In this document: piece by piece, positions 8,911 to 21,898 of the stretch
Numbering within the stretch: position 1 is the first letter of the stretch
Layout: each line of letters starts with the position of its first letter
Origin: a virus
Virus record (IMG/VR): IMGVR_UViG_3300031555_005249
Length of the DNA: 64,000 nt
Reading direction: 5' to 3' (one strand)
Position numbers and translations under genes: made by a program
Notes under the pieces: generated by a model
Database searches by the model: none
Told to the model about the DNA's origin: nothing
The model's input: only the letters and a program-made list of their open reading frames with translations

Positions 8911-8942
8911 TTATAGAAAATATAAGAAAGGAAATAATACCA

Positions 8943-9314
8943 ATGAATATTGAAGATATGATCATGAATGGTGCATCTGAAGAAGAGATTGCAGAAGCTA
9001 TAGACCAGATTCGCGCCAAGAGAACCTTGAAAATGGAAGAAGAGCGTCAGGCGCGCGAATCTCAAAAGAAGAAAGATGAAGAGCAGACCGCGAAAGAGGC
9101 GCTTAAGGCAGAGGCTCGCGCGCATTTCATCAATGCTGTACTTGCATATAGTGAGGCTTTTGACCTTTTGGAAGAGGGAGAGAGCTGGACTGAAGAAGAT
9201 CTAAAAGAGGTGGAAGAGTACCTTATTCAGATTGAAGGAATAATTCCTATGTATGCTAAGATGATGAAGAAGAAAAAGGAATTCGGATTTGGAGATCTTT
9301 TTGGATTGATATAA
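8943..9314 (+). CDS. hypothetical E/K-rich coiled-coil protein
   Basis: Internal ATG (MNIEDMIMNGASEEE...) of ORF 8784..9314 with RBS AAGGAAATAATACCAATG. TAA stop, no TAG. Confidence 0.5.
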   Translation: MNIEDMIMNGASEEEIAEAIDQIRAKRTLKMEEERQARESQKKKDEEQTAKEALKAEARAHFINAVLAYSEAFDLLEEGESWTEEDLKEVEEYLIQIEGIIPMYAKMMKKKKEFGFGDLFGLI

Positions 9315-9606: not shown

Positions 9607-10314
9607 GTGAAACTTGTTGAAGGTAAAATAACTTTAGCTAATTTGGCTACTTGGCTAGGAGTATCTGCAGGCACCCTGCGCAATAATAAAAGTAAGTATT
9701 TAAATATTTTAGCTCGCTATTGCCGATATCATGAAGAAGGAACTACCAAAAAGACTCTTTATATTGATGAAGTATACGAAGCAGAATATTCGGCGCTATA
9801 GGGTCCAAAACCTTATCAAAGAGTAAAAGAGTTAACAAGAGAGGGTTGGAGCGCAGAAGGGCTAGATAGTTGTGCTCTTGTTGCAAGTCGTAATTTTCCT
9901 ATTCTATAGCAAGAGGGATACACAATTACAGAAAATACCAATTATAATTATACTTGTTAGAGCAGAACGGAACTTTGGGGCAGTCCTATGAAGCGCACAA
10001 ATGGTGAGCTTGGCTATTGTCGTTATGAGTATTGTAAAATTGGACCTTAGGGCAAGCTTGTTCCGCTTAATGAGGAAGAATAGAAGATTAAGCGCTAGAT
10101 CACAGAGAAATACTTTGGTAATTTAGAAGATTTTACTCTTGGGATAGCTGATGATATTAAAACTGGTAAGATTACTGCGGAAGAGGCTGGTATTGCATTA
10201 GCTAATTTAGGTAGTCATGGAGAATATTTAGCTTGGAAGAATGAACTTGAGGCTAGACTAGGTTGTAAGATTTATAAAGGAACAAGAATACATAATGAAG
10301 AGAGTGCGTTTTAA
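9607..10314 (+). CDS. HTH-domain protein (N-terminal ITLANLATWLGVSAGTL), TAG-recoded (about 7 TAG)
   Basis: GTG start after an AAGGAG RBS. ORF-track piece 9607..9801 continues in frame through TAG codons to a TAA at 10312-10314. No TAA/TGA inside the 236 codons. Confidence 0.45.
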
Positions 10315-10335
10315 TGCGCACTCTTTTTGCCGTGT
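10300..10335 (+). terminator. rho-independent terminator
   Basis: Hairpin AGAGTGCG-TTTTAAT-GCGCACTCT followed by TTTTTGCC. Confidence 0.5.
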
Positions 10336-10484
10336 ATTTATTTTTACTATGCATTTCTAGCAAAAGTACTACACGTAGTAAAATCAATACACGATGAATG
10401 TGGTAATTTGCTAAGTTTTTTAATCATACTCAGCCTATACTTCGCTTGATAATAAATAATATTAGGTACATTTGCAACCTTTCT

Positions 10485-10565
10485 GCGTTACCCTTTTTTA
10501 AGGCAACGGCAACTATAAGTAAGGAGTATGAGAAGTTGTTGCCTTGTTTTAAGGTAACAGAAGCG
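10485..10565. other. long imperfect palindrome in a ~550-bp non-coding region
   Basis: cgttaccctttttt-aaggcaacggcaact...agttgttgccttg-ttttaaggtaacag. No convincing ORF between 10335 and 10900. Confidence 0.3.
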
Positions 10566-10914
10566 CCTTTCCATTTTATTACATTTTTACCAAATTTTGG
10601 TAATACGCATCTATACTACCCTCAAGTCACGGCCTCCCCTTAACTCATTAACCAATAGTAGCTCCTTTCTTCTTTACTATTGTCATCTTTTATTCTTTTC
10701 ACTATAATTATACCATAATTTTCACTAAAATTCAACTTTTTCTCTTGGATCTAGGCGGCAATCATCATATTTTTCATTTCTGCGACCAAATTTTAGCATT
10801 ATTGAAAGAACAAAAACAAGGAAAATACATTAGAAATATGAGTTTTTGATAAAATATTCATATATTATGCGAAAAAATTGATAAAAATGCTAATTATAGG
10901 AAAAAATAATGAAA

Positions 10915-11160
10915 ATGAAACAACCAAAAATCGCGGGCGTTATAGTGGAAAGCACTGGACTAGAGCGATGACGGCTCTTTGCGATTGTCCGCGGCCCGAG
11001 CATATGCGCGTGCGCGCTATAGAGGTAGAATTAAGGGAAAACAGTGACTGCGCCAAACAACTATTTTTCGGTCGGTATAATATGGAAGAGATGGTAGATT
11101 CTGGAAACGGGGCTAGCCGGTGGCTAGCGACCCGCGCAATTATGAACAAAGTGTGAACAA
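10915..11160 (+). ncRNA. GC-rich structured element, candidate ncRNA of unknown family
   Basis: About 245-nt island of ~60% GC in a ~30% GC context. It holds several perfect local hairpins (AGAGC-gatgacg-GCTCT; TATGCGCG-tg-CGCGCTATA; GGCTAGCC-ggt-GGCTAGC) and long-range complementarity (CGCGGG at ~10922 with CCCGCG at ~11135). A bidirectional terminator follows at 11180-11215. Overlapping ORFs on both strands (10878..11156 and 10940..11149) translate to Arg/Ser-rich low-complexity sequence. Confidence 0.3.
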
Positions 11161-11179
11161 GGGCGCAGATAAAAAAAAC

Positions 11180-11215
11180 AGAAGGCTTTACCCTCTGTTT
11201 TCTTTTAGTGACATT
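11180..11215. terminator. bidirectional rho-independent terminator
   Basis: Hairpin AACAGAAGG-ctttac-CCTCTGTT flanked by an A8 tract upstream and TTCTTTT downstream. Terminates the plus-strand element and minus gene 11222..11464. Confidence 0.5.
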
Positions 11216-11221
11216 TGGCGC

Positions 11222-11464
11222 TCAATCCTCTGTCACCTCTTCCTCTCCGTTTTTATCATACAATTTTCCGTCTGTACAACAGCCGTCATAGGTCAGGCGC
11301 ATATATTCTATCCAATGATGACCGCAGTTATGACATCTGCGCTCTATTGAGATTATCTCGTATAAGTCACCATTCTGTTCGGTGACATCTATCTCGGGGT
11401 CACTTGAATTATAGACCTTTTCAAACTCGCCGCATTTCGGACATTCGTATTCTCTTGTTTTCAT
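11222..11464 (-). CDS. zinc-ribbon protein (CPKC...CHNC)
   Basis: ORF-track ORF with TGA stop. Two CxxC pairs. Confidence 0.55.
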   Translation of the reverse strand: MKTREYECPKCGEFEKVYNSSDPEIDVTEQNGDLYEIISIERRCHNCGHHWIEYMRLTYDGCCTDGKLYDKNGEEEVTED

Positions 11465-11748
11465 TCTTCTTCCTCGCTTTCTTCGGGAATATCATAAGAT
11501 AGGATTGTTCCATAGTATATGGCAGTATACAAATTGCGCCATCGTTTTTCGCAATTAAGACATTGATAAGTTTCCTCAACGAAGCCGTTGTTGTCATTTG
11601 GATATTCAAATGGATTTACTCCACTTCCATCATTCCAAACGATATTATCAGATTTGCAAAAAGGACACACAATCCCTGCTTTGGGAAGTCTTACCATAGT
11701 ATTATTGGCGGTATAGTTTCCTGTTTGTAATTTCTTATATATATTCAT
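11461..11748 (-). CDS. zinc-ribbon protein (CPFC...CLNC), acidic C-terminal tail
   Basis: ORF-track ORF. Its TGA overlaps the next start (ATGA). Confidence 0.55.
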   Translation of the reverse strand: MNIYKKLQTGNYTANNTMVRLPKAGIVCPFCKSDNIVWNDGSGVNPFEYPNDNNGFVEETYQCLNCEKRWRNLYTAIYYGTILSYDIPEESEEEE

Positions 11749-11784
11749 TCCTCTTCCTCGCTTTCGTAGTGGGGGTGACTTTCG

Positions 11785-12255
11785 TCACCCCTCGGTAAAG
11801 TAGGTGTCAAATTCGCCTTTAGTTTTAAGCGATTCAAGACCTTTCTTCGTGTATCTCGTCAAGTCAAGCTTAAAGTATTCACCGCCTTGCTTGAACACTA
11901 TCATTTTACCCGCCTTGACGATTTTACAGTAGTCTGCATTTTCCGATATAGCGGTTTCGATTGCTTGGATAATTCCGTTCTTAGTTTTATCCTCTTTCAC
12001 TACCCTCTCGCGCTGTGTCTTTTGCTTATACTCGGTTGATTTAGCTTTATGAACCGTTGCGCTAACTCGATTCTCTTTAGCTTTTGCGGTGAGTGCTTGT
12101 TCTTCTTCGTTGTCGATATAATCGTTATCAAAGAGCCAAAGGTCAACCGCCTCTTGCCGTGAGCATTTAAGCATACGCATATTCAGCTCTATTGCCTCAT
12201 TCGGTACTCGCACTGTGCGCCCGTTCTCAAGGGTATAAAGGCTATAATCTGCCAT
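11785..12255 (-). CDS. hypothetical protein
   Basis: ORF-track ORF with TGA stop. Promoter at 12290-12322. Confidence 0.55.
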   Translation of the reverse strand: MADYSLYTLENGRTVRVPNEAIELNMRMLKCSRQEAVDLWLFDNDYIDNEEEQALTAKAKENRVSATVHKAKSTEYKQKTQRERVVKEDKTKNGIIQAIETAISENADYCKIVKAGKMIVFKQGGEYFKLDLTRYTKKGLESLKTKGEFDTYFTEG

Positions 12256-12289
12256 TGGTTTTTACCTCTCTTTCTGTCCTCTTGACATA

Positions 12290-12322
12290 TATATTATACC
12301 ACACTCTTGGTCATTTGTCAAG
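12290..12322 (-). promoter_or_regulatory. sigma-70 consensus promoter, TTGACA-17-TATAAT, with AT-rich UP-like tract
   Basis: Plus tgtcaa at 12316-12321 and attata at 12293-12298. Upstream (minus sense) AAAAAATTTTTCAAAAAC tract. Confidence 0.65.
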
Positions 12323-12368
12323 AGGTTTGGTAAAAGTTTTTGAAAAATTTTTTTGGTATGAGGGAGAA

Positions 12369-12779
12369 TTACTCTCCCTCTACCTCGTCTACTACCCCGT
12401 AATTAAGGGAGTAGTATGCAACTTTCTTTTCAAGGGTGCGCTTAAAGTCTGCGCTCTTGGACACGATAGCGGTAATCATCTGTGACGATACGTTATCTCC
12501 GTTAGCTCTCTTATACTCTTTGATAGAATCGACCTTGAGGAGTGAGCCAACGGTCATTCCCTTTTCATCTACACACTCGGCGAGAGCGTCCTTGATAAGT
12601 TCGGTTACTGCGAGAGCGTCTTTCTGCGCAGGAGTGAGAGAAGCGGACTTTGAGTTCTTACGGGAGAGAAGCTCTATCTCGTGAGCCATAACATCTGCCC
12701 ACTCGGTTTTGCCGTTCTCTATGAGGAACGCTTTGATGTTCTCAAAATTCTCTCTCTTGGTGATTTTCTTTTCTGCCAT
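12369..12779 (-). CDS. small early protein, paralog family member
   Basis: ORF-track ORF with TAA stop inside the hairpin loop. Paralog of 3777..4166 and 13351..13755. Confidence 0.55.
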   Translation of the reverse strand: MAEKKITKRENFENIKAFLIENGKTEWADVMAHEIELLSRKNSKSASLTPAQKDALAVTELIKDALAECVDEKGMTVGSLLKVDSIKEYKRANGDNVSSQMITAIVSKSADFKRTLEKKVAYYSLNYGVVDEVEGE

Positions 12780-12856
12780 AGTTTTCTACCTTTGCGATCT
12801 GTGACCGCCCTTTCAAAATTTTTTATTTCAAGAGGATTTTCCTCTTGATTACATAT

Positions 12857-12889
12857 ATATTATATCACAAGTTTGTGATTTTGTCAAGG
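12857..12889 (-). promoter_or_regulatory. P1 promoter, TTGACA-17-TATAAT
   Basis: Plus tgtcaa at 12882-12887 and attata at 12859-12864. Confidence 0.65.
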
Positions 12890-12996
12890 GGTTTTTGAAA
12901 AGTTTTTCAAAAATTTTTTATTTTTTTCAGTGGTTGCAACTACGGGACGATGCCTCGCAAGGTCGTTCTATCCGTCACCGCCCCTTGACTACGATA

Positions 12997-13029
12997 ATAT
13001 TATATCATAAAAAGATAAATTTGTCAATA
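12997..13029 (-). promoter_or_regulatory. P2 promoter, TTGACA-17-TATAAT, ~130 bp upstream of P1, with conserved leader ATTATCGTAGTCAAGGGG
   Basis: Plus tgtcaa at 13022-13027 and attata at 12999-13004. The 25-nt block ccccttgactacgataatattata recurs at 15301-15325. Confidence 0.55.
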
Positions 13030-13080
13030 GAAAATGGGAAAATAATTTGCACAAATTTGAGAGGAATTTTGGTGAGAAAA

Positions 13081-13097
13081 TTGTGCAACTTGCACAA
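13081..13097. promoter_or_regulatory. palindromic operator-like site TTGTGCAAcTTGCACAA
   Basis: Perfect 8-1-8 palindrome, with an additional half-site TTTGCACAAA at 13047-13056. The same motif occurs at 15409-15425 and 19508-19525, and half-sites at ~15375, ~16819, ~18296 and ~19079. Confidence 0.45.
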
Positions 13098-13140
13098 AAA
13101 CGCACAAATCGGCCCAGCGGCGGCCGCCGTTGGGCCGGTC

Positions 13141-13169
13141 AAAAAAAGACCTCTGCCGTCGCAGAGGTC
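13141..13169 (-). terminator. rho-independent terminator (minus) plus adjacent GC hairpin 13111-13136
   Basis: Plus A7 then hairpin GACCTCTGC-cgtc-GCAGAGGTC, which reads on minus as hairpin followed by a U-tract. Second hairpin GGCCCAGCGGCGGCCGCCGTTGGGCC. Confidence 0.5.
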
Positions 13170-13350
13170 TATCCTCGAGGTTGACCATTCTCGCTTTCTC
13201 GCCACTCCTTGCGCATAGGGGACTTTGGTTTTAATGGTCTGCAAAGGCGTGTGATTTGAACACACATCTGTTGGAAACGAAACCAACTGTTCTTCCATTA
13301 AACTACCCTTTGTTATGTATGAGGGGCGCATTTGCGCCCCTGTGCCTCAC

Positions 13351-13755
13351 TCACGCAAGGCGAAAGTAAGTGACCTTTTTGTCAATGGTCTTGACTACAT
13401 CACCGCAGTCAACGAGCTTTTTAAGCATAGAGGAAACTCGCTGTGAAGATGTTTCCTTACCATCTGCCCACTCAAACTCTGCGATACGAGAATCCTTTGC
13501 TATCGCACCGCACTGCATACCCTTTACATCGGTTGCTTCTGCGAGAACATCATGAATGAGGTCAAGGAAAGTATCAACTTCCTCTGCGCGCTTTGCGCTG
13601 ACCTTACCACTCTTGCTTTCAAGCTGACCGAGCTTCTTTTCGGCAAACTCGATTACTTTATCCATAGGGATTGTGGTCGGCTCTCCGCTTGCCATCTTGA
13701 TGATTTCCTCATACATCTGCTTCTGTGTGTACTTGATTTCCTTGATTTCTGCCAT
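13351..13755 (-). CDS. small early protein, paralog family member
   Basis: ORF-track ORF with TGA stop. Paralog of 3777 and 12369. Confidence 0.55.
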   Translation of the reverse strand: MAEIKEIKYTQKQMYEEIIKMASGEPTTIPMDKVIEFAEKKLGQLESKSGKVSAKRAEEVDTFLDLIHDVLAEATDVKGMQCGAIAKDSRIAEFEWADGKETSSQRVSSMLKKLVDCGDVVKTIDKKVTYFRLA

Positions 13756-13832
13756 AATTTTTTTCCTCTCTTGCTATTAGGTTGCAACCCTTTAATTTTA
13801 TTTATCAGAGGTATTCCCTCTTGATTACATAT

Positions 13833-13865
13833 ATATTATACCATACTTTTTGGTATTTGTCAATA
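13833..13865 (-). promoter_or_regulatory. sigma-70 consensus promoter, TTGACA-17-TATAAT
   Basis: Plus tgtcaa at 13858-13863 and attata at 13835-13840. Confidence 0.65.
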
Positions 13866-13906
13866 GGTTTTTGAAAAATTTTTTATTTTTTTTCTTGGGT
13901 AGAGGG

Positions 13907-14626
13907 TTATTCACCCTCTACCTCTTTGCGCTTATGAAAGGGATATACCCATTCACCCTCTGGAGTTAAGCAACCGAGTTTCGTGCGCTCTTGGAAGATA
14001 TTACAACCTCTTTTTCCAAGTTCACAAAGAATACGGAGTTCCCATTGAACATCGGAAAGTGCGGTATGTTCCTCAACAAAATCTTTATCTTGGTTAAGAA
14101 ATGCGGTTACACCCTCAACAGAGGTCGGTATATATTTACCACTTGGAGTGCGGAGTTCGTGTTCGTTGCAAAATGCGATATAATCTGCGGTAGAGCATAT
14201 GTCGTATTGTGCATTACACCATATATCTATAACCTCGATTTTGTCAAGTGGATTCAAAATACCGAGCGCAGTTGCGGTTCTGCGGAATTTGTCCTCGTCA
14301 AACTCGGAGTTATAGGCAAAGCCATACTGTATGCCATATCGGTCAATATCTCTTGCTATTTGCTCAAATATCTGTTTTTCGGTACGGAGTATTGCCGTTC
14401 CGTTCTCAACATTCAAGTCAAACTTTGCGAGTTTTTCTGCTTTGACGAACATATCATTCAAGAGCCAAATGCGGTTGTGATAATGTTTGCCTACAAGATA
14501 GTCTTTGCCTTTGAGTATCTTATACTTAAAGGTTGTTAAGTCAACATCTGCTATACAATAGCCTATGTTAAGTAGTGTTTGGGTACAACACCCTGCGGTT
14601 TCGGTATCAAATACCATAATGTTCAT
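13907..14626 (-). CDS. DEDDh-type 3'-5' exonuclease (DnaQ-like)
   Basis: MVFDTETAG (Exo I D-x-E motif) and HTALSDV (Exo III). 239 codons with no TAG, TAA stop. Confidence 0.65.
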   Translation of the reverse strand: MNIMVFDTETAGCCTQTLLNIGYCIADVDLTTFKYKILKGKDYLVGKHYHNRIWLLNDMFVKAEKLAKFDLNVENGTAILRTEKQIFEQIARDIDRYGIQYGFAYNSEFDEDKFRRTATALGILNPLDKIEVIDIWCNAQYDICSTADYIAFCNEHELRTPSGKYIPTSVEGVTAFLNQDKDFVEEHTALSDVQWELRILCELGKRGCNIFQERTKLGCLTPEGEWVYPFHKRKEVEGE

Positions 14627-14683
14627 TTTTTCTTTTCCTCTCTTTCTGTCATAGGGAGTAGCCCTCGCTCTCCACTCGACATA

Positions 14684-14716
14684 TATATTATATCACATCT
14701 TGACGAATTTGTCAAG
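14684..14716 (-). promoter_or_regulatory. sigma-70 consensus promoter, TTGACA-17-TATAAT
   Basis: Plus tgtcaa at 14709-14714 and attata at 14686-14691. Overlaps the 3' end of upstream gene 14712..15158. Confidence 0.6.
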
Positions 14717-15158
14717 AGGTTTTACAAAATTTTTTCAAAATTTCAAAAATTTTTTCGGGCGGAAATGCGTCACCCTTAGTCCACTCAAGGCGGTTGCGCT
14801 CTTCATCGTCAAACAGTATGCCCTCACTCTTGGCTACGGACGATTTGGGTGTGCCATATGGAACGATATGCAATTCATCAAAAATAACGGACTTCAAGTG
14901 CTTTTTGAGCCATTTGCGCTTGGCTTTAGTGACCGCCTTGTTATAGTCCTCAGTTGCGGCTTTAGACAGCCACGATATAACACCTATATGAACGCCATTG
15001 CGCTGAGCCTTATTCAATGCTCTTGCAAGTGCAGACATATTGTGCATAGGTCTTGCTTCTTCATATGGGCGCGTTCGCTTGGCTTCAAGGTCATCGAGCC
15101 AGCCTTCGACCGCATAAAGGTCAGCAACGGTGCCGTCAAGGTCTAAATAAATTGTCAT
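14712..15158 (-). CDS. HAD-superfamily 5'(3')-deoxyribonucleotidase-like protein
   Basis: N-terminal IYLDLDGTVADL (DxDGT HAD motif I). ORF-track ORF with no TAG. Confidence 0.6.
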   Translation of the reverse strand: MTIYLDLDGTVADLYAVEGWLDDLEAKRTRPYEEARPMHNMSALARALNKAQRNGVHIGVISWLSKAATEDYNKAVTKAKRKWLKKHLKSVIFDELHIVPYGTPKSSVAKSEGILFDDEERNRLEWTKGDAFPPEKIFEILKKFCKTS

Positions 15159-15190
15159 TTGGTTTAGTTCCTTTCTTCCTTACTGCTCTT

Positions 15191-15223
15191 ATATTATACC
15201 ATACTTTGAGCGATTTGTCAAGG
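15191..15223 (-). promoter_or_regulatory. P1 promoter, TTGACA-17-TATAAT
   Basis: Plus tgtcaa at 15216-15221 and attata at 15193-15198. Confidence 0.6.
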
Positions 15224-15315
15224 GGTTTTTGAAAAATTTTTTCAAAAATTTTTGAGTGTCCACTGATTAGCAAGTCCATTTCACTGCTTTTGTTTCTCAC
15301 CCCTTGACTACGATA

Positions 15316-15348
15316 ATATTATACCACAAAGGGCGCAAAAAGTCAAGC
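15316..15348 (-). promoter_or_regulatory. P2 promoter, TTGACT-17-TATAAT, with conserved leader
   Basis: Plus agtcaa at 15341-15346 and attata at 15318-15323. Same conserved block as at 12981-13005. Confidence 0.55.
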
Positions 15349-15408
15349 GGTTTTGGGAATTTTCTTTTCGTCAATTTGCACAAACTTTTGGCGAAAAAAT
15401 GCGTGGAA

Positions 15409-15425
15409 TTGTGCAATTTGCACAA
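15409..15425. promoter_or_regulatory. palindromic operator-like site TTGTGCAAtTTGCACAA
   Basis: Second copy of the 8-1-8 palindrome, with half-site TTTGCACAAA at ~15375-15384. Confidence 0.45.
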
Positions 15426-15459
15426 AAACGGCGCCACACCGATCGGTGGCGCGCCGACC

Positions 15460-15486
15460 AAAAAGAGGGAGATTAATCTCCCTCTA
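15460..15486 (-). terminator. rho-independent terminator overlapping stop of 15473..15682; GC hairpin 15431-15452
   Basis: AAAAAG then hairpin AGAGGGAGAT-TA-ATCTCCCTCT. The TAA stop sits in the loop. Confidence 0.5.
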
Positions 15487-15682
15487 TTATGATTTTATTG
15501 ATAACTTTTGCATAGTCTTCTTGCGCTCTTCGGAATGCTTGTGCCGCAGTATGCAAAGGGCATTCTTCGCAATCAATTTCGCCGCACTGTATATGAATGC
15601 AGGGGTCAATCATTATAGCTTCAAGAGTGTCGTGCTGTTCTGTTGCGGTTATTGTGACTATGATTTTCATATTTACCTCCAA
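15473..15682 (-). CDS. hypothetical small Cys-rich protein
   Basis: ORF-track ORF with TAA stop. Confidence 0.5.
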   Translation of the reverse strand: MEVNMKIIVTITATEQHDTLEAIMIDPCIHIQCGEIDCEECPLHTAAQAFRRAQEDYAKVINKIIIEGD

Positions 15683-15933
15683 ATTAAATTGATAAGATAA
15701 TAAGTATTCATCGCAAATAATGCGACATTAAGTATTACAAGATTTATGCGCCTTGCGCTAAAGCAAAATGCGGTTGCGATTGCCGAGCCGATGAAGAATA
15801 ATACTGTCATATCGGCGCCACACATAACACCTATTGCGCAAGCGGTATAGATTAGTGCGGTGATATCGGTGATATCAAATTCATAGGGGCGGTCAAGGCT
15901 GAAATAGGTTTTTAGTTTACCAATCAAAGTCAT
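15673..15933 (-). CDS. small membrane protein
   Basis: ORF-track ORF, hydrophobic throughout. Confidence 0.5.
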   Translation of the reverse strand: MTLIGKLKTYFSLDRPYEFDITDITALIYTACAIGVMCGADMTVLFFIGSAIATAFCFSARRINLVILNVALFAMNTYYLINLIWR

Positions 15934-16105
15934 CTACCTCTTCTTCCTCATAATCATTAGTATAATAATATTGCGTGGTTTTGAACTCTTTACCACAACC
16001 GCATTTATATTTGCGACTTGCGACAATTTGCTCTCCGTCCTCTTCATATTTTGCCGATAAATATTTAACTTGGGCGGTGCTACCGCAATTTGGACATTTA
16101 ATCAT
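15917..16105 (-). CDS. zinc-ribbon protein (CPNC...CGC)
   Basis: ORF-track ORF with acidic C-terminal tail. Confidence 0.5.
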   Translation of the reverse strand: MIKCPNCGSTAQVKYLSAKYEEDGEQIVASRKYKCGCGKEFKTTQYYYTNDYEEEEVDDFDW

Positions 16106-16305
16106 TTTAATTTAAGCTCCTTTCTAATATTGATAATTCCACGAAATTCTGCGGTATAGATTGCTTCACAGTGAGGGCAACAAACTTTAGCCTCAAAATC
16201 TGCTTCATACCCGTCAAAATTCCATATCTTTGCATCCACATCTCCACAGAACAAGTCATCTCTGGTTATAAGTTTATCGCAATTTGGGCATTTAATCATT
16301 TTCAA
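16102..16305 (-). CDS. zinc-ribbon protein (CPNC...CPHC)
   Basis: ORF-track ORF. Confidence 0.5.
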   Translation of the reverse strand: MKMIKCPNCDKLITRDDLFCGDVDAKIWNFDGYEADFEAKVCCPHCEAIYTAEFRGIINIRKELKLK

Positions 16306-16489
16306 ATTCTCCTTGATATTCTCTTATTGTGCAATATCCACTCCAACGCCATTCAAGGCATTGTTGATTGATATATTCTTGTGCCTGTTCTTGACTATCA
16401 AAGATAGGCGGTTTATTATCTCCTATGAATCCTTTATGCAAGAAGCCGTTTGGACAAGAGCGAGTATGAATATAAATTACATATTGCAT
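16292..16489 (-). CDS. hypothetical protein (MQYVIYIHTRSCPNGF...)
   Basis: Internal ATG of ORF 16292..16825. The upstream part of that ORF overlaps the tRNA and promoter, so it is discounted. Confidence 0.45.
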   Translation of the reverse strand: MQYVIYIHTRSCPNGFLHKGFIGDNKPPIFDSQEQAQEYINQQCLEWRWSGYCTIREYQGEFEND

Positions 16490-16509
16490 AAGTATTACCT
16501 CTCTTTTTT

Positions 16510-16584
16510 TGGTGAAGCGAATGGGAATTGAACCCACAACGCAGTTGAATAGTGTCAACCTCATTACCTTTGTGATACCGCTTC
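16510..16584 (-). tRNA. candidate amber-suppressor tRNA (anticodon loop contains CUA), CCA encoded
   Basis: Minus-strand read GAAGCGGTATCACAAAGGTAATGAGGTTGACACTATTCAACTGCGTTGTGGGTTCAATTCCCATTCGCTTCACCA. Hand fold gives a 7-bp acceptor stem (GAAGCGG/TCGCTTC, one GU) with discriminator A + CCA, a T-arm GTGGG-TTCAATT-CCCAT with canonical TTCAA T-loop, and an anticodon arm GTTGA-CACTAT-TCAAC whose loop centre is CTA. The D-arm is short (3 bp) and the anticodon loop is 6 nt by hand, so it is non-canonical or my fold is imperfect. Sits between genes under a consensus promoter ~7 nt upstream. Confidence 0.55.
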
Positions 16585-16595
16585 TTATTACATTT

Positions 16596-16628
16596 ATATT
16601 ATACCATATAATCTTGCTTTTGTCAAGA
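16596..16628 (-). promoter_or_regulatory. sigma-70 consensus promoter driving the tRNA, TTGACA-17-TATAAT
   Basis: Plus tgtcaa at 16621-16626 and attata at 16598-16603. The predicted TSS falls a few nt upstream of the tRNA 5' end. Confidence 0.6.
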
Positions 16629-16779
16629 GGTTTTCGAAAAATATTTGCAACTATTTTTCTTATCTCCGATACTTTCCTACTCAAAGCTTTCGTGTCCGTT
16701 CTCTTGTTGTACACCAAGTTTCTGATTTCCATTCCTTGCAAGTTAATTTCTCCGCACGAGGTTCCCCCTCTTGACATTA

Positions 16780-16812
16780 TTATTATATCATACAATCGGG
16801 AAAATGTCAAGT
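16780..16812 (-). promoter_or_regulatory. second upstream promoter (P2-type), TTGACA-17-TATAAT
   Basis: Plus tgtcaa at 16805-16810 and attata at 16782-16787. TGCACAA half-sites at ~16819 and ~16860. Confidence 0.5.
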
Positions 16813-17013
16813 GGTAATGTTGCACAAAGTTTCAACAAAAAAATGGCGGGAAGTGTACAAAATGCACAAAACGGAACGCGCCGGCCGGGCTCGTTCCGCT
16901 CGGATTTCAGGCAAAAAAGAAAAAACCCAGAACTCATGAAAAGCTCTGGAAATTTGTTGAGAGGTCTACTTCGTGGAAATTCGGACTTGGCGCGACCGCC
17001 TTCGTCCGTCAGC

Positions 17014-17316
17014 TTAATGGCTGAAGTGTTTCAACACGTCTTGTACATTGTACTCATTTTCATCATCACTCATAATTATAATTTTATTTTCCCATTCAGC
17101 AGGAATGCTTAAAATTTTAAATGTTTCCTTTAAGAATGAAATCATATTCGTACAATCATTTTTTTGATTGTCAGAATGAAAGAGAAGGGCGCCCAACTCT
17201 TCACAATAAAGTGCATGAAGTGGATAGTCTTGCGCCGAGAGGGTTTCCCAATCAAGGGGAGTAAGTGATGATTCAAAAGAAGTGATGACAAGAGCGTGGA
17301 TGAAGTGATACTTCAT
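17014..17316 (-). CDS. hypothetical protein
   Basis: ORF-track ORF with TAA stop. Confidence 0.5.
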   Translation of the reverse strand: MKYHFIHALVITSFESSLTPLDWETLSAQDYPLHALYCEELGALLFHSDNQKNDCTNMISFLKETFKILSIPAEWENKIIIMSDDENEYNVQDVLKHFSH

Positions 17317-17357
17317 ACCGCGTGACCTCCTTGTATCTCTTATTTCTTTTTACATTT

Positions 17358-17390
17358 ATATTATAATATAAAATTTTATAAAAATCAATG
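17358..17390 (-). promoter_or_regulatory. sigma-70-type promoter, TTGATT-17-TATAAT
   Basis: Plus aatcaa at 17383-17388 and attata at 17360-17365. Confidence 0.55.
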
Positions 17391-17398
17391 GGTGTGGA

Positions 17399-17605
17399 TT
17401 ATTCCACACCCAAGAGTTCCTTTATTTTATTGACTACTTGCTCTTGTGCTTGTTTCAGAATGTAATAATCACAATTATCAAGTGTTGCAATATAATCATC
17501 TACCGCTATGCGGATTTCAATTTCATTACTATTATGATTAAGATCATACTCCTTAATGATTTCTTTTTCATTGATTTCTACGCCCGTAGTAATCTCTATA
17601 TACAT
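17399..17605 (-). CDS. hypothetical small protein (MYIEITTGVEINEKE...)
   Basis: Internal ATG of ORF 17399..17725 with an AAAAGGAGAAAACAAT RBS. The stop lies in a hairpin loop. Confidence 0.45.
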   Translation of the reverse strand: MYIEITTGVEINEKEIIKEYDLNHNSNEIEIRIAVDDYIATLDNCDYYILKQAQEQVVNKIKELLGVE

Positions 17606-17648
17606 ATTGTTTTCTCCTTTTGCGAATTTCCAAATTTTTCCAATGCGC

Positions 17649-17906
17649 CTACCAAGCGACTCGGATATGATATCTACCTTCAAAAAGGTTTTTTTCAATC
17701 TCAGCCTTGTAGCCAAATTTTTCAAGATTCGCTCTTATGAGTTCGACCTCATCTTTGGAAACCTCTTTTACTCCACTGAAATAACCTTGTGAAGCCCTTT
17801 TTTTGATGAAGCGCAACATCTCTTTCATTGCCCACGAATGCATGAATTGGTTTTGATTATTTTCTGCCATCTCTCTTGCTTCCTTTGCGGTCATAGGGTT
17901 TTTCAT
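17649..17906 (-). CDS. hypothetical protein; stop is TAG with a 22-codon in-frame extension to TGA
   Basis: ORF-track ORF. Stop codon is TAG (plus cta at 17649-17651), followed in frame by AHWKNLEIRKRRKQYVYRDYYGRRNQ then TGA. Confidence 0.5.
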   Translation of the reverse strand: MKNPMTAKEAREMAENNQNQFMHSWAMKEMLRFIKKRASQGYFSGVKEVSKDEVELIRANLEKFGYKAEIEKNLFEGRYHIRVAW

Positions 17907-17935
17907 AAGTATTTCCTCTCTTTCTTTTAGTATAT

Positions 17936-17968
17936 ATATTATACCATACTTTTATATATTTGTCAAGT
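17936..17968 (-). promoter_or_regulatory. sigma-70 consensus promoter, TTGACA-17-TATAAT
   Basis: Plus tgtcaa at 17961-17966 and attata at 17938-17943. Confidence 0.6.
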
Positions 17969-17980
17969 AGTTTTTGAAAA

Positions 17981-18205
17981 TTATTTGAAAAAAATTTCAA
18001 GCACAATTACATCGTCGCAACAACCCTCAATAGTTATTTCCATACTATCTATCTTGCGGTTAGCATACTCTTTAATATGCTCACATTCTTTAACATACCA
18101 ATCGATTGATTGAGCACCAAGCCATTGTTCTGCTTTGAGTAAGAAGTTGTCATAAATGCGGATTTTATCTATGTTGTAGATAAGCGGAAGTTGTGCAAGT
18201 GTCAT
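17981..18205 (-). CDS. hypothetical small protein
   Basis: ORF-track ORF. Confidence 0.5.
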   Translation of the reverse strand: MTLAQLPLIYNIDKIRIYDNFLLKAEQWLGAQSIDWYVKECEHIKEYANRKIDSMEITIEGCCDDVIVLEIFFK

Positions 18206-18235
18206 AAGTCATTTTCCTCTCTTTCTTTTACACTT

Positions 18236-18268
18236 ATATTATACCACAAATATCGGGAATTGTCAATA
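18236..18268 (-). promoter_or_regulatory. sigma-70 consensus promoter, TTGACA-17-TATAAT
   Basis: Plus tgtcaa at 18261-18266 and attata at 18238-18243. TTTGTGCAAA half-site at ~18296. Confidence 0.6.
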
Positions 18269-18384
18269 GGTAATAATCAACAAAGTTTTGCGCCGATTTT
18301 TGTGCAAAATGCCAGCCCACAGATAAAACGGCTCGGCGCGCCCGATGCCGAGCCGCCAAAAAACAAAAGAGGGCAATCGCCCTC

Positions 18385-18765
18385 TTAGGTTTGATATTTA
18401 GTTATCTCTGTGGAAGAGCTTTGCGCCACCATTAGCGAAATACACCTTTGCATTGTATCGAGTTCAACCACTCTGATGACTTTGCCTTTAGCATACGCAT
18501 ATCCGCACTCCCAAGCTGATCCAAGGTCACCATTGGCGCCTTCGCAAAAATAGAGAATTTCATCACATTCATCTATTGCTTGAACGTCGTGTTGGAATAC
18601 CTTGCGCGCCCATTCGGAGTTAGGTAAAGCTTTAGCATTAGGTATCTCTAATTCGTGGGGAACGTAAACTTTATATCCTAACTGTCGTAAGAGTTTTGCG
18701 TGCTTGTTTATTCTGTCCTTTTGGCTTTCGGTAAACATAGCACTTGCTATATAAAACTTTTTCAT
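18385..18765 (-). CDS. nucleoside 2-deoxyribosyltransferase-like protein
   Basis: N-terminal FYIASAMF plus GSAWECGYAYAKGK resemble the Nuc_deoxyrib_tr family signature. TAA stop. Confidence 0.5.
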   Translation of the reverse strand: MKKFYIASAMFTESQKDRINKHAKLLRQLGYKVYVPHELEIPNAKALPNSEWARKVFQHDVQAIDECDEILYFCEGANGDLGSAWECGYAYAKGKVIRVVELDTMQRCISLMVAQSSSTEITKYQT

Positions 18766-18790
18766 ATCTCACCTCTTGATAGTGGATAGA

Positions 18791-19009
18791 TTATTCATCT
18801 ATCCACTCTTTTACTTTATAGGCTGTAACCTCGACAATATCAGCGGTGAATTTTATCTCTCCCGTAAAGTTATAGATTACGTAAGTATTACCTCTGTTAT
18901 TTGTCGTAAACTCTCTTGCAAACTGAATTGCCATACTAAGATCGTCAAAATCAGCAATATGTTTGCCGTCCGCATAGACGCCATAGTCAAGAATGTCAAA
19001 TTTTACCAT
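18791..19009 (-). CDS. hypothetical small protein
   Basis: ORF-track ORF. The stop lies in a hairpin loop (AGTGGATAGAT-tattc-ATCTATCCACT). Confidence 0.5.
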   Translation of the reverse strand: MVKFDILDYGVYADGKHIADFDDLSMAIQFAREFTTNNRGNTYVIYNFTGEIKFTADIVEVTAYKVKEWIDE

Positions 19010-19041
19010 AATATTAATACCTTCCTTCCTTTACTGTGCCT

Positions 19042-19074
19042 ATATTATATCATATTACTTGCCTCTTGTCAATA
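19042..19074 (-). promoter_or_regulatory. sigma-70 consensus promoter, TTGACA-17-TATAAT
   Basis: Plus tgtcaa at 19067-19072 and attata at 19044-19049. TTTGCACAAA half-site immediately upstream. Confidence 0.6.
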
Positions 19075-19107
19075 GGCATTTTGCACAAAATTTTGCGGCG
19101 GGTCTTG

Positions 19108-19416
19108 TTAACAATATACAAGACCCATATCACGCCAACGGAGAATAGAAATTTGAGAGCAGGCGCGCCCGACCTCAAGCGCTTTTTTCAAGGTACTTTC
19201 GCGATGGCTCTTGTCTATGTAATAAACTCCAGAACTATACCATATACCACAGTTGCCTTCGTATGCCTTAACGGCGTTGATTGCTTCGCGCGGGTCACGG
19301 GTTTCGATACCTTCGGTGGCTACTTGGTAGCCTGTTTTGAACGTGACGCGCTGACCCTTTTTGAGAGTTAAGCCGTCATTATCTTTAAGTTTGAGAATCG
19401 AGCGAATGTTAATCAT
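19108..19416 (-). CDS. hypothetical protein
   Basis: ORF-track ORF. Confidence 0.5.
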   Translation of the reverse strand: MINIRSILKLKDNDGLTLKKGQRVTFKTGYQVATEGIETRDPREAINAVKAYEGNCGIWYSSGVYYIDKSHRESTLKKALEVGRACSQISILRWRDMGLVYC

Positions 19417-19446
19417 AGGTGTTTCCCCTTCCTTTATCTTACGTAC

Positions 19447-19479
19447 TTATTATACCATAAAAGCGGGAATTTGTCAATA
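19447..19479 (-). promoter_or_regulatory. sigma-70 consensus promoter, TTGACA-17-TATAAT, with upstream palindrome 19508-19525
   Basis: Plus tgtcaa at 19472-19477 and attata at 19449-19454. TTTGTGCAAcTTGCACAA sits ~30 bp upstream of the -35. Confidence 0.6.
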
Positions 19480-19593
19480 GGCAAAAGTAACAAAGTTTTG
19501 ATAGTAAATTTGTGCAACTTGCACAACTATGCGTAAAGCGTCACGCCGCGGCCCTTGGCGTGACGGCGAAAAAAAAAGAGGGCGCAAGCGCCC

Positions 19594-19794
19594 TCATATG
19601 AAGTCGGCAAATTGGTCTTCCACCCAAGCCATTATAAGAGGATTAAAGGTTTGTATCTCAACCTCTACGCATGAGGGATGGACTTGGAGAAGAATTGCCT
19701 CTCCTGCGTTATTAGCGGCGAGGAATGAGCAGACTTTTTGCACCGCCATACCGCTTTCAAAAGTTTTATTAAGCATAAAATTCTTATACTGCAT
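19594..19794 (-). CDS. hypothetical small protein (MQYKNFMLNK...)
   Basis: Internal ATG of ORF 19594..19995 with an AGGAGA RBS. The TGA stop lies inside terminator hairpin AGAGGGCGC-aa-GCGCCCTC, which is preceded by A9. Confidence 0.4.
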   Translation of the reverse strand: MQYKNFMLNKTFESGMAVQKVCSFLAANNAGEAILLQVHPSCVEVEIQTFNPLIMAWVEDQFADFI

Positions 19795-19822
19795 ATATAT
19801 CTCCTTTCTTATGGGGATTGCC

Positions 19823-20110
19823 TTAGCAATCCCCCGTATAGCAACCCATATAGGGGTCAAAGCCGTTTTCATCAGGCTCTTCTTCCTCATAGTCATACCA
19901 GTCGTCATTATAATAGAGGGTCTCAGAGCCGTGATGGTAAATGATGCGCGCCATATCTGTCGCCTCTGCTTCAGTAAGATAGCCATTAGCAACAAGCTCT
20001 ATAAGTCTGCCTATTGCAAGAGAATGAGTATCTTCAAGTCCAAATTCCGTACAAGCAAGATTGAAGCAAGTCTGCAAGTCGAGTTTTGTGTAATCCATAA
20101 TGCACCTCAT
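19823..20110 (-). CDS. hypothetical acidic protein
   Basis: ORF-track ORF. The stop lies in a hairpin loop (GGGGATTGC-ctta-GCAATCCCC). Confidence 0.5.
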   Translation of the reverse strand: MRCIMDYTKLDLQTCFNLACTEFGLEDTHSLAIGRLIELVANGYLTEAEATDMARIIYHHGSETLYYNDDWYDYEEEEPDENGFDPYMGCYTGDC

Positions 20111-20148
20111 AGTATTTATTTGAGAGTCTATTCCCTCTCTTCTTGCCT

Positions 20149-20181
20149 ATATTATATCATATATTCTTGCATTTGTCAATG
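20149..20181 (-). promoter_or_regulatory. sigma-70 consensus promoter, TTGACA-17-TATAAT
   Basis: Plus tgtcaa at 20174-20179 and attata at 20151-20156. Confidence 0.6.
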
Positions 20182-20384
20182 AATAAAATGTAAACAATAT
20201 ATGAATTATGGGACGGGATCCAATCATAGTTTATTCAATCAATTGAAATAAAAAATTTACAAATTGTTCACAAATTGCTTTAACGGTGCGCGCCGACCGT
20301 GCCCGCACCGAGCGATATAAAAAGGCGCGCCAAAGGTCACCCTAAGGCGCGTTATAGTGTTGATATGAGATGCTAAGGGCGCGC

Positions 20385-20678
20385 TCAGGCGCCCTCATCA
20401 TCAAGCTGACTCTCTATAAATGGTATGATGATATTGAATATTTCAACTTCTTTATTGGTTAAGCCTATAATATCGCAATATGCTATTGGCTCTGCTATAT
20501 CTTTATATACCGTGCGTACTGAGGGGCTTAAATGGTATGGGTCAATATAAGGGTCGCTATCACTATCACCCCACATTCTGTCACCTTTGACATCGTATAT
20601 TGCCAATACATCGCCGAAGTAGCGGGCAAGATATTCTGCCCATTGTGTAAACTCATTTTGTATGCTTATTCTTTTCAT
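20385..20678 (-). CDS. hypothetical protein
   Basis: ORF-track ORF. Confidence 0.5.
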   Translation of the reverse strand: MKRISIQNEFTQWAEYLARYFGDVLAIYDVKGDRMWGDSDSDPYIDPYHLSPSVRTVYKDIAEPIAYCDIIGLTNKEVEIFNIIIPFIESQLDDEGA

Positions 20679-20682
20679 TATA

Positions 20683-20898
20683 TTATTCCCCCATTATCTC
20701 CGCTATTGTGTTATCATATATTCTTTTTGCTTTAGTAACGCCATATTGAAACGATATAATACCCTTACGATAGTCATCTAATATATGCCCTATGGCGATA
20801 GTTGTAGGGTGTTCAAGTCCTAACTCTTTACACGCTTTATTAAAGTATCTTCTTATGCTCATAATATTCTCCCTTCTTGAGAGGTGGATTATCTCCAC
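20683..20898 (-). CDS. hypothetical small protein
   Basis: ORF-track ORF. Confidence 0.5.
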   Translation of the reverse strand: MEIIHLSRRENIMSIRRYFNKACKELGLEHPTTIAIGHILDDYRKGIISFQYGVTKAKRIYDNTIAEIMGE

Positions 20899-21233
20899 CT
20901 CTCACCTCTCTCTATATCAAAGTAATATATAATTTCATCAGCGTCAATGAATTTATTTAAGTCAAGACCGCTATTGTAAAACAAGTCATTTAATTCATCA
21001 AGATTATTATAGTCATAAGGGTCAAACTCATAAAGTTCATCTTCATTATTGCAAAATGGGCAAGGGTCATTGTATTCCATAGCATACTGAGGAAGAGTCA
21101 CTTTATGACACTTGCTACAATAAAGTAAATCTGTTAAACGGGCAGGGCGAGTAACTATTTTGTTATTAAGATAAAACGTCGCAAGATATTTGTTATTGTA
21201 TTCATTGTGCTTTGTGTTAATAGTAATTTTCAT
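20889..21233 (-). CDS. zinc-ribbon-containing hypothetical protein (CSKC...CPFC)
   Basis: ORF-track ORF. The stop lies in a hairpin loop (GAGAGGTGGA-ttatc-TCCACCTCTC). Confidence 0.5.
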   Translation of the reverse strand: MKITINTKHNEYNNKYLATFYLNNKIVTRPARLTDLLYCSKCHKVTLPQYAMEYNDPCPFCNNEDELYEFDPYDYNNLDELNDLFYNSGLDLNKFIDADEIIYYFDIERGERWR

Positions 21234-21275
21234 TATTATATACCTCTCTTTTCTTTATCTTGACGGGGCTATTAT

Positions 21276-21440
21276 ATAGCCCCGTATAATTTCATAGGGT
21301 TACTTATATTGATTTTCTCTTGAGTGTTTTCTAACTGTTGTATTAAAGCTTTTTCCTCTAACTCTTGTAAAGCAAGTTCAAACTCATACTCTCGACGGTT
21401 ATCAATGTGCTTGTCGACCACTATTTTATTTTTCATTATC
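21276..21440 (-). CDS. small hypothetical protein (MKNKIVVDKHIDNRREYEFELALQELEEK...)
   Basis: Own translation with RBS AAAGGGGGTG. The TAA stop lies inside the palindrome GGGGCTAT-TAT-ATAGCCCC. Confidence 0.35.
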
Positions 21441-21540
21441 TTCACCCCCTTTGTCTATAATGGTAATAGCAATTTTTGCAACAAGTGCAATTAAACCTAT
21501 TACTAACCAAGTGCCAATAAATTCACCTAACATTTTTTTA
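21427..21540 (-). CDS. small TM peptide (MLGEFIGTWLVIGLIALVAKIAITIIDKGGEDNEK)
   Basis: Own translation with RBS GAGAGGTAAAAAAATG. Stop overlaps the next start. Confidence 0.3.
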
Positions 21541-21833
21541 CCTCTCTGTTTTGATTTTTTGTTTGCGCTCTCTCTCTTGGAGCATACTCATTGTATCACT
21601 TCTTTTTGAACTCCAAGTTTCGAAATTATGAACTTTTTGTAAATCCGACGGGATTTTTCAAATTTTTTTTGTTAACAACTACACAACAATCTCGACATCT
21701 TTTGTTCATAATTTATTCATAACTTTTTTAGTTATTTTCGGGAAAAAAATTATTCACAATTTGTTCACAATTCCGCTCACGACATCTCCCTCCTAGAATA
21801 TTTCTTTTATTTCAAAAAACGAACTTCTAACAA

Positions 21834-21866
21834 CAAAAGAGGGATTTTAACAAATCCCTCTTTGCT
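21834..21866 (-). terminator. rho-independent terminator after lipase gene
   Basis: Hairpin AAGAGGGATT-tgttaaa-ATCCCTCTT followed on minus by TTGTTGTT. Confidence 0.45.
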
Positions 21867-21898
21867 TCTCATATTCAATTGAAAATTACGCACACGTA

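Follow-up and report, generated by a model that had tools for sequence, protein, structure and literature searches.

A conserved, unannotated non-coding element at the junction of two early-gene blocks in human-gut phages: a candidate modular RNA

Introduction

Does a short GC-rich island in an AT-rich, gene-poor part of a phage genome mark a gene for a small protein, a non-coding RNA, or a site that works as DNA? This question is raised by positions 10915-11160 of a 64,000-nt stretch of viral DNA (IMG/VR record IMGVR_UViG_3300031555_005249; hereafter the window), which a preliminary description had put forward as a structured candidate non-coding RNA (ncRNA) of no known family. The observation is real, though overstated, and was partly confirmed. 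The segment is a compositional outlier in the window: its GC content is 0.496, compared with 0.349 for the window as a whole, and only 0.6% of 246-nt segments are equally GC-rich. The flanks have values of 0.246 (10736-10914) and 0.323 (10330-10735). However, a GC content of ~60% had been claimed, whereas the measured value is 49.6%. The surrounding gap is gene-poor, as stated, with public gene callers empty across 9801-10887 and a single open reading frame (ORF, 10878-11156) spanning the island. A bidirectional terminator indeed closes the segment, with an A-run before and a U-run after its hairpin, which lies 12 nt beyond the island's end.

In contrast, the boundaries that had been proposed are too narrow, since the conserved unit begins ~200 nt further left. 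The alignments indicate that the island is not a stand-alone unit but the right-hand (3') half of a conserved non-coding element of ~480 nt (about 10716-11205), whose AT-rich 5' half is the better conserved of the two. This element is unannotated and matches no known RNA family. Our tentative reading, which we regard as quite possible rather than probable, is that it is an independently transcribed plus-strand RNA of ~480 nt, running from promoter to terminator and serving as a modular binding scaffold, platform or decoy. The interpretation as an ncRNA is thus partly supported: the element is conserved, under purifying selection and non-coding, whereas its action as RNA rather than DNA is plausible only.

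Conservation of the element

Relatives of the element were found along two routes. Translation of the island-spanning ORF led to four protein clusters, whose contigs gave the first homologous DNA. In addition, a syntenic 124-aa protein (8940-9314) had 29 homologues, whose contigs were looked up and searched with nhmmer; by this route the whole element was recovered in every sufficiently long contig. With nhmmer, 12 distinct sequences were matched over the full length of the element (E 1e-30 to 1e-156), and a gapped-motif scan of IMG/VR yielded one true relative, L068, on a contig of 123 kb. The 12 distinct sequence versions come from gut metagenomes and one IMG/VR contig, and comprise the version of the window (identical in L005-L010), L001, L002 (= L003), L004, L011, L013, L017, L018, L019, L020, L021 and L068.

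Among the first five sequences, identity is 81-93% in the AT-rich part (about 10747-10930) and 45-89% in the island. Where the 124-aa protein next to the element has diverged to 48-56% identity (67-71% for its nucleotides), identity is 58-89% in the 5' arm and 62-80% in the island with its tail. For instance, when L018 is compared with the window, the 5' arm has an identity of 0.89 and the island one of 0.77, while the syntenic 124-aa gene reaches 0.71 (nucleotide) and 0.56 (protein). These identities equal or exceed those of the syntenic gene, so that conservation of the element is at least on a par with that of an adjacent protein gene. Conservation is nearly continuous across ~190 bp. This pattern indicates that the element is under purifying selection.

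One part of the element varies in a different manner. L011 and L013 are near-identical except for the tip of a hairpin in the second of two repeated units (U2, see below), where L013 carries the same tip as L017 and L011 the same tip as L004. Since two phages that are almost identical elsewhere carry different tips, the U2 tip appears to have been exchanged between phages. L017 is a mosaic as well, with an L011-like 5' end joined to a window-like middle. The type of hairpin tip did not track the type of the adjacent g1 protein.

Wider searches gave no further relatives. This applies to two additional patterns in IMG/VR, to a DNA search of the INPHARED phage records in near and distant modes, to IMG/VR scans with the ORF and with a 156-aa neighbour, and to exact-motif scans of IMG/VR and the JGI metagenomes with invariant AT-rich 24-28-mers. 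The GC-rich 19-mer GCGRTTGTCCGCGGCCCGA was found at 32 loci, all of them chance matches in GC-rich genomes (e.g. within unrelated coding sequence), and the 13 matches of a gapped pattern in GTDB genomes were also all due to chance.

Absence of a protein-coding gene

Public gene predictions place a gene for a small protein in the island (89-92 aa; 10878/10887-11156, plus strand). There is some reason for this, as the ORF spans the island and ends 12 nt short of the terminator, the gene is called on >20 contigs of up to 135 kb, and three related 'proteins' exist. Against it, the product falls into only 4 clusters among 5.8 billion (P0001-P0004), and the frame is not kept among these: P0004 is frameshifted and diverges after about 40 residues, while in P0002 the stop is read through into the terminator. 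In the DNA alignment, the window and L002 differ by a compensated local -1/+1 shift, and L004 carries an insertion of 8 nt. The reading frame survives only among the closest relatives, and a comparable ORF is absent in 8 of the 12 versions, under code 11 as well as under code 15, in which TAG is read through.

The pattern of substitution points in the same direction. Codon positions 1/2/3 are substituted 23/25/22 times among the three sequences that keep the ORF, and the further counts of 67/64/68 and of 93/82/88 (eleven sequences) are as even (chi-square p 0.81-0.95), with no third-position excess; the test covered all frames on both strands. About 30 nt around the start codon are invariant, with zero synonymous change, no Shine-Dalgarno sequence precedes the ATG, and the ORF product has no match in Pfam. 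The homologous gap has no gene call in seven relatives (L011, L013, L017, L018, L019, L020 and L021). A protein gene at this site is hardly credible and can be regarded as effectively excluded. The non-coding character suggested in the preliminary description is supported by the broken or absent frame, the lack of codon-position bias and the gene-free gap in relatives; its remark that the ORF product is of low complexity did not hold for the plus-strand translation.

Two other candidates for a coding function were rejected. A minus-strand ORF ('MLGPRTTA...') stems from an invariant nucleotide block, and its start and downstream sequence are not conserved. A mini-ORF of 9-20 aa with its start at 10909/10915 occurs in no more than about half of the relatives.

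Modular architecture

As judged from profile searches, the island consists of two tandem paralogous units of ~83 nt each, U1 and U2 (Table 1). Profiles of U1 and U2 matched each other over their full length in reciprocal searches and matched nothing else in the window. The 24 units from the 12 phages align well, and the two units are about 50% alike. Both follow the same order, with an AAACA box, a G-Y-R-UAUA-G box, a UGGAAR box, a CUAG-like box and a GA(A)ACGG sequence that opens a GC-clamped stem-loop. The boxes AAACA, GYRUAUA-G, UGGAAR and GA(A)ACGG are conserved and single-stranded. In U1 the order reads AAACA, GYGUUAUAG, a hairpin (10944-10956) with a GGAAAG loop, a CUGGACUAG box, GACGG and a stem-loop (10972-10998), such that the UGGAAR box forms the loop of the hairpin; the stem-loop holds the near-invariant sequence GCGrUUGUCCGCGGCCCG. 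U2 ends in a GC-clamped stem-loop (11108-11134), the tip of which is wholly different between relatives. In outline, the element thus appears to be built from an unstructured A/U-rich arm, two paralogous modules, a linker hairpin, conserved single-stranded boxes and GC-clamped stem-loops.

Table 1. Predicted features of the element and its borders (positions in the window).
Feature	Position	Strand	Remarks
Candidate sigma-70/sigma-A type promoter, TTGTCA-17-TATAAT	10680..10708	+	11/12 consensus positions; inferred start near 10715
Opposing promoter, TTGAAT-17-TGgTATAAT	10707..10735	-	Member of the 16-copy early-promoter family D1
A/U-rich 5' arm, about 25% GC	10716..10915	+	Best-conserved part; no predicted consensus structure
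ORF, 92 aa (89 aa from ATG 10887)	10878..11156	+	Judged spurious; hypothetical protein in public gene calls
Tandem unit U1, ~83 nt	10916..10998	+	Full-length match by U2 profile, E 0.013
Linker between U1 and U2	10999..11052	+	Variable GC hairpin 11006-11017, conserved CUAUAG 11017-11022, GGUAGAAU, AAGGGAAAA 11033-11041
Tandem unit U2, paralogue of U1	11053..11134	+	U1 profile match 11054-11134, E 0.003
Tail, two ATGAACAA/TGTGAACAA motif copies (11142-11149, 11152-11160), then GGGCGCAGAU	11135..11170	+	
Bidirectional intrinsic terminator common to the convergent early operon	11171..11205	both	Inverted repeat I1; hairpin and U-run on either strand

The linker hairpin also occurs in L004 and L068, with different sequences, and the linker differs by indels of up to 28 nt among relatives. 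In the tails of L004, L017 and L021, TGCACAAAA motifs replace the TGAACAA-type motifs and resemble the D15 palindromes of the window. The terminator stem varies in sequence, while its hairpin, A-run and U-run are kept in 12/12 relatives. A single DnaA-box-like 9-mer was read from the alignment, in relatives.

Motifs of the tail type are also seen elsewhere. The TGTGAACAA motif occurs on the minus strand at 20264 and 21761, a count that is within chance, and similar repeats (TGAACAA-type motifs, about 21.7 kb) lie at 21690-21775. In a non-coding stretch of ~340 nt after a terminator (21560-21900), the motif of the element's tail recurs on the minus strand as four TTATGAAYAA/TTGTGAAYAA repeats. 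The D15 palindrome, AATTGTGCAAnTTGCACAAAAAC, is found four times near early promoters (13079-13102, 15407-15430, 16851-16874 and 19508-19531). Possibly, this D15/TGCACAAAA-type motif is the operator of a phage regulator.

Possible RNA structure

Structure is strongly supported for the terminator and for the U2 stem-loop. In the latter, six different sequences adopt the same interrupted fold, with energies of -12 to -18 kcal/mol and z-scores of -1.5 to -4.3. The fourth pair of its clamp is G-C, A-U or C-G across relatives, and the stem has asymmetric bulges. Strong forms of the U1 stem-loop are seen in L001, L018 and L068 (z -2.1 to -3.0). The GACGG box of U1 has two mutually exclusive pairings, with GUCCG or with GCCCG, each with 83-85% paired cells. 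The linker hairpin (helix 3) is 87% paired, and 2 of its pairs have changed on both sides. Across an alignment of 12 sequences only, support for U1 and the linker hairpin together is modest, at 83-87% paired with 2-3 such pairs. In the hairpin at 10944-10956, the third pair is U-A, U-G or C-G in different relatives.

The minus strand folds with a z-score of -2.08, a value to which the terminator hairpin may contribute, as it lies within the segment that was folded. Most of the pairs from a column-based covariation scan were U/purine pairs of low complexity, and RNAalifold predicted no pairs in the 5' arm. A helix between 10738-10746 and 11033-11041, predicted from 4 sequences, looks compensated in L021 by hand and is tentative. 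Three further pairings were dropped: CUGCGCC/GGCGCAG (11048/11162) and ACAUUC/GAAUGU closing U2 are not conserved in the alignments, and the pairing of the U1 CUAGACC box with GGUCUAG in U2 holds only in relatives of the GGUCUAG type.

Short perfect hairpins are indeed present in the island, at 11112-11128 (GCTAGCC/GGCTAGC), 11006-11017 (GCGC-GUGC-GCGC) and 10944-10956 (AGUG-GAAAG-CACU). The long-range complementarity CGCGGG...CCCGCG exists too (inverted repeat I11), but it is not conserved: where relatives retain one arm, the other has changed. Solid conservation as a structure is confined to the U2 stem-loop and the terminator, whereas a stable whole segment and a consensus fold lack support. 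Hence, the element appears to be less globally structured than the term 'structured island' implied.

Genomic context and transcription

The element is located inside the early region, exactly at the point of convergence between a rightward block of genes and a leftward early block. Two promoters, 10680-10708 on the plus strand and 10735-10707 on the minus strand, overlap at their -10 boxes and would fire outward. The rightward promoter has a score of at least 9 at the same position in 6 of the 12 versions (the window, L001, L004, L018, L011 and L013). The leftward promoter scores 9-10 of 12 in 12/12 relatives, with the extended -10 TG in 11/12. The upstream plus-strand genes have their own terminator at 10296-10329, and plus-strand transcription that reaches 11200 should therefore start inside the gap. 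On the minus strand, the shared terminator has a long U-run on the side facing the early operon. We infer plus-strand transcription of the element from the upstream terminator, the plus-strand U-run in every relative and the strong minus-strand side of the terminator.

The leftward promoter is predicted to drive a second conserved non-coding stretch, a leftward unit at about 10570-10700 on the minus strand. It has a strong AAAGGAG Shine-Dalgarno sequence and no conserved ORF: the peptides would be 0-27 aa long, with starts missing in 5/12 versions. The conserved core of this unit is GGGAGGCCGUGACUUGGGGGUAGUAUA...UAUGGAAAGGCGCC.

Strong minus-strand promoters of sigma-A type (TTGACA-17-TGnTATAAT) stand before small early genes at 16 sites in the window between 829 and 20179 (e.g. 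12272, 12838, 13814 and 15172). Eight of the 16 share a conserved upstream element (families D1, D2 and D4). The region looks like an early region of the host-takeover type.

Possible modes of action

Our results make it plausible that the element acts as RNA rather than as DNA. In the RNA reading that we tentatively prefer, host RNA polymerase would start at the sigma-A-like promoter at 10680-10708 and stop at the intrinsic terminator, yielding a plus-strand RNA of about 10716-11205. This RNA would be made early in infection, because its gene sits within the early-gene region. It would act in trans as a modular binding platform or decoy, in which the two repeated modules may hold two copies, or a dimer, of a protein partner, while the variable hairpin tips would set specificity and the conserved A/U-rich arm could offer a surface for sequence-specific binding or base-pairing. 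A platform or decoy is suggested because the modules are repeated, the tips are exchangeable and the conserved arm is single-stranded. A more specific version seems rather improbable to us, namely that of an early-expressed decoy in a conflict between phage and host, with modules that trap a host factor (a nuclease, a defence sensor or a global regulator) and exchanged tips that carry the specificity of the arms race. Such a decoy would explain why L011 and L013 differ only in the tip, and why the element is sited among early genes of the host-takeover type.

Several results weigh against an RNA of this kind. The plus-strand segment does not fold better than dinucleotide shuffles (z -0.62; 52 of 200 shuffles fold equally well), RNAalifold found almost no consensus fold on MAFFT sequence alignments, hairpin energies show no consistent preference for one strand, and in the window itself the U1 stem-loop is weak (z -0.18). 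The rightward promoter is weaker or absent in L002, L017, L019, L020, L021 and L068, and no position is common to all versions. Moreover, the best-conserved part of the element is unstructured AT-rich DNA directly upstream of a promoter that is conserved in 12/12, an arrangement that also looks like a DNA control region, and the tail motifs recur elsewhere in intergenic DNA.

The main rival, which we consider somewhat unlikely, is that the element works as DNA. It could be the upstream control region of the leftward promoter, or a protein-bound organising region between the convergent early modules, and possibly an origin-like site. DNA-binding proteins of phage or host would then have their sites in the AT-rich block, in both 83-bp direct repeats, in the palindromic hairpin tips and in the tail motifs. 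This is in line with the conservation of the leftward promoter in all 12 versions, where the rightward one is not conserved, and with a peak of conservation in the ~200 bp directly upstream of the leftward -35 box, where no RNA structure is predicted. In its variable forms, the U2 tip is an almost perfect palindrome around a centre of 3-4 bp, like operators of dimeric proteins, and the TGTGAACAA and TGCACAAAA tail motifs recur in other intergenic regions in both orientations. Yet conservation continues almost unbroken over about 190 bp, rather than being confined to short sites with free spacers. The outer clamp of U2 covaries across asymmetric bulges, which fits a single-stranded fold better than a symmetric operator, and the plus-strand U-run of the terminator is kept in all relatives. 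A layout of promoter, AT-rich tract and direct repeats is known from T4 oriF/oriG and from iteron origins, and the element resembles these and the lambda ori in that its non-coding gap combines a promoter with a conserved AT-rich stretch and with direct repeats. However, it has only two long and unevenly built repeats of ~83 bp, about 50% alike and 54 bp apart, instead of a regular array of three or more repeats of 17-22 bp, the genes converge on the site rather than diverge from it, and no initiator-like or DNA-binding gene is consistently adjacent. An iteron-type origin is not supported by this repeat structure, and no initiator was recognised nearby.

Alternatively, the element might be a cis-acting leader with a conditional terminator. 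If a protein, an antitermination factor or a ligand bound to the tandem modules were to suppress termination at 11171-11205, transcription would continue as antisense through the early genes at 11222-22378 and shut them down, and the leftward unit would do likewise to the gene block on its own side. We find this improbable, even though two outward promoters between convergent blocks, each with a non-coding leader ending at a terminator, provide the required layout, and read-through in either direction would be antisense to genes. The mutually exclusive pairings of GACGG with GUCCG and GCCCG are about equally supported, as one would expect of a switching element. Tandem homologous domains occur in some riboswitches, such as the glycine riboswitch, and riboswitch-controlled antisense RNAs exist, as in the B12/AspocR system of Listeria. 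The promoter, non-coding leader, strong terminator and antisense read-through are also shared with known conditional-terminator leaders (6S of lambda PR' with Q, put/nut and riboswitch antisense systems). In contrast to these systems, the element has no co-oriented downstream gene, no conserved antiterminator pairing and no match to a riboswitch or antitermination RNA in Rfam. No conserved partner was found for the 5' half of the terminator stem, and the candidates in the window (11096-11103 and 11048-11054/11162-11168) are not kept in relatives. Furthermore, the strong terminator with its long U-run is present in all relatives, and a tail of ~30 nt with repeated motifs separates U2 from the terminator. 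A riboswitch or attenuator leader was not supported, because the genes after the terminator are on the opposite strand and the sensor-terminator pairings are not kept in relatives.

Comparison with known RNA families and systems

The absence of a known family, as assumed from the start, is supported by scans of the window and of 11 relatives. With Rfam 15 at gathering thresholds, the only match in the whole window was a tRNA at 13241-13312. Permissive searches (E up to 10) gave terminator-only matches or noise at 10500-11400 and nothing in the core of the element in the 11 relatives. The families covered include ROOL, GOLLD, HEARO, 6S, tmRNA, RNase P, riboswitches and the T-box. ARAGORN found no tmRNA in the window.

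Large orphan RNAs of phages and Firmicutes such as ROOL and GOLLD, as well as thousands of candidate intergenic RNA motifs of phages, have been described previously (PMC10690425; bioRxiv 10.1101/2024.12.08.627333). Like RNAs of the ROOL/GOLLD type, the element is phage-borne, non-coding, several hundred nucleotides long and conserved across related phages, and it extends from a promoter-like site to a terminator within a few kb of a tRNA gene. It differs from them in that it lacks an Rfam match, is shorter, has an A/U-rich half without structure, shows weak global structure and contains two paralogous modules.

The sequestering RNAs CsrB and RsmZ offer a second comparison. Here too, modules with a short motif and a hairpin are repeated and the RNA ends at an intrinsic terminator. 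However, the element has only two full modules plus a few degenerate copies of a motif that was defined post hoc, and GGA is not enriched according to a hand count. By analogy, sequestering of a protein in the manner of CsrB/RsmZ would be the most likely mechanism, and we do not claim membership of that family.

A tandemly repeated phage unit that lies in an early or host-takeover region, and whose variable parts seem to have been swapped between phages, is also reminiscent of ToxI and pseudo-ToxI, RNA anti-CRISPRs and solitary CRISPR repeats. The units of the element are old and diverged, in contrast, and no co-oriented toxin or cas gene follows. A type III ToxI-like antitoxin was rejected, as the units have diverged and there is no co-oriented downstream gene. 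A CRISPR array, a solitary repeat or an RNA anti-CRISPR was rejected as well, with diverged repeats of ~83 nt and no short tandem repeat family in the region. A scan of a genome collection gave chance matches only, for a query that was the family-specific motif and not a repeat unit or host CRISPR repeats. Neither did we find support for the template of a diversity-generating retroelement, as there is no second copy in the 64-kb window and no reverse transcriptase domain in the neighbouring genes scanned.

Other features near the element

Some features of the neighbourhood are recorded here in their own right. A long hairpin of GTTACCCTTTTTTAAGG(C/T)AAC repeats at 10490-10560 separates the last of the rightward genes from the leftward unit and is also present in L013. 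In nine relatives, a small convergent gene of 54-136 aa with the N-terminus M(T/S)AYEELKAWCEKHL comes directly after the shared terminator (724-1276 in L001, 6510-6743 in L011 and 5858-6268 in L013; in L017-L021 it is the first gene to the right of the element). The window lacks this gene, as well as two further small genes that are present in L001. In the minus-strand tRNA gene at 13241-13312 (Rfam 44.6 bits), the anticodon loop is 8 nt long, UUUCGUUU. The anticodon given by ARAGORN has four bases, 'tcgt', and no amino-acid identity; the tRNA is not a CUA suppressor.

Phage lineage and implications

The late region of the window (22.5-64 kb, plus-strand genes) appears to read TAG as a sense codon. 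Counting TAG as sense raises the summed ORF length from 4559 to 13221 codons in this region, with a longest ORF of 3150 codons, whereas it makes little change in the early region. One late-region protein of 350 aa shares 46% identity with a protein of phAss-1, a code-15 phage and the type of a proposed group of gut phages that read TAG as Gln and have Clostridia as predicted hosts (PMC10607447). The element was not found in the 86 of 136 kb of phAss-1 that were searched. These sequence comparisons indicate that the element belongs to a small lineage of uncultivated human-gut phages with genomes of about 135 kb and TAG recoded in late genes, which are distant relatives of phAss-1.

On a practical note, public gene callers list a spurious 89-aa 'hypothetical protein' at this site on >20 contigs. 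Many orphan RNA candidates of phages exist, and it is the architecture and genomic position of this element that set it apart as a reasonable target for further work. Its position is notable, at the junction of two convergent early-gene blocks and flanked by overlapping promoters that face outward. If the element is an RNA, it would represent a new family of unusual build, in which an unstructured conserved arm is combined with two paralogous modules with exchangeable tips. Code-switching phages are common in the gut, and the control of their infection programme is poorly understood; as an RNA, the element would be a candidate for regulating the early phase of that programme or for acting as a decoy in it.

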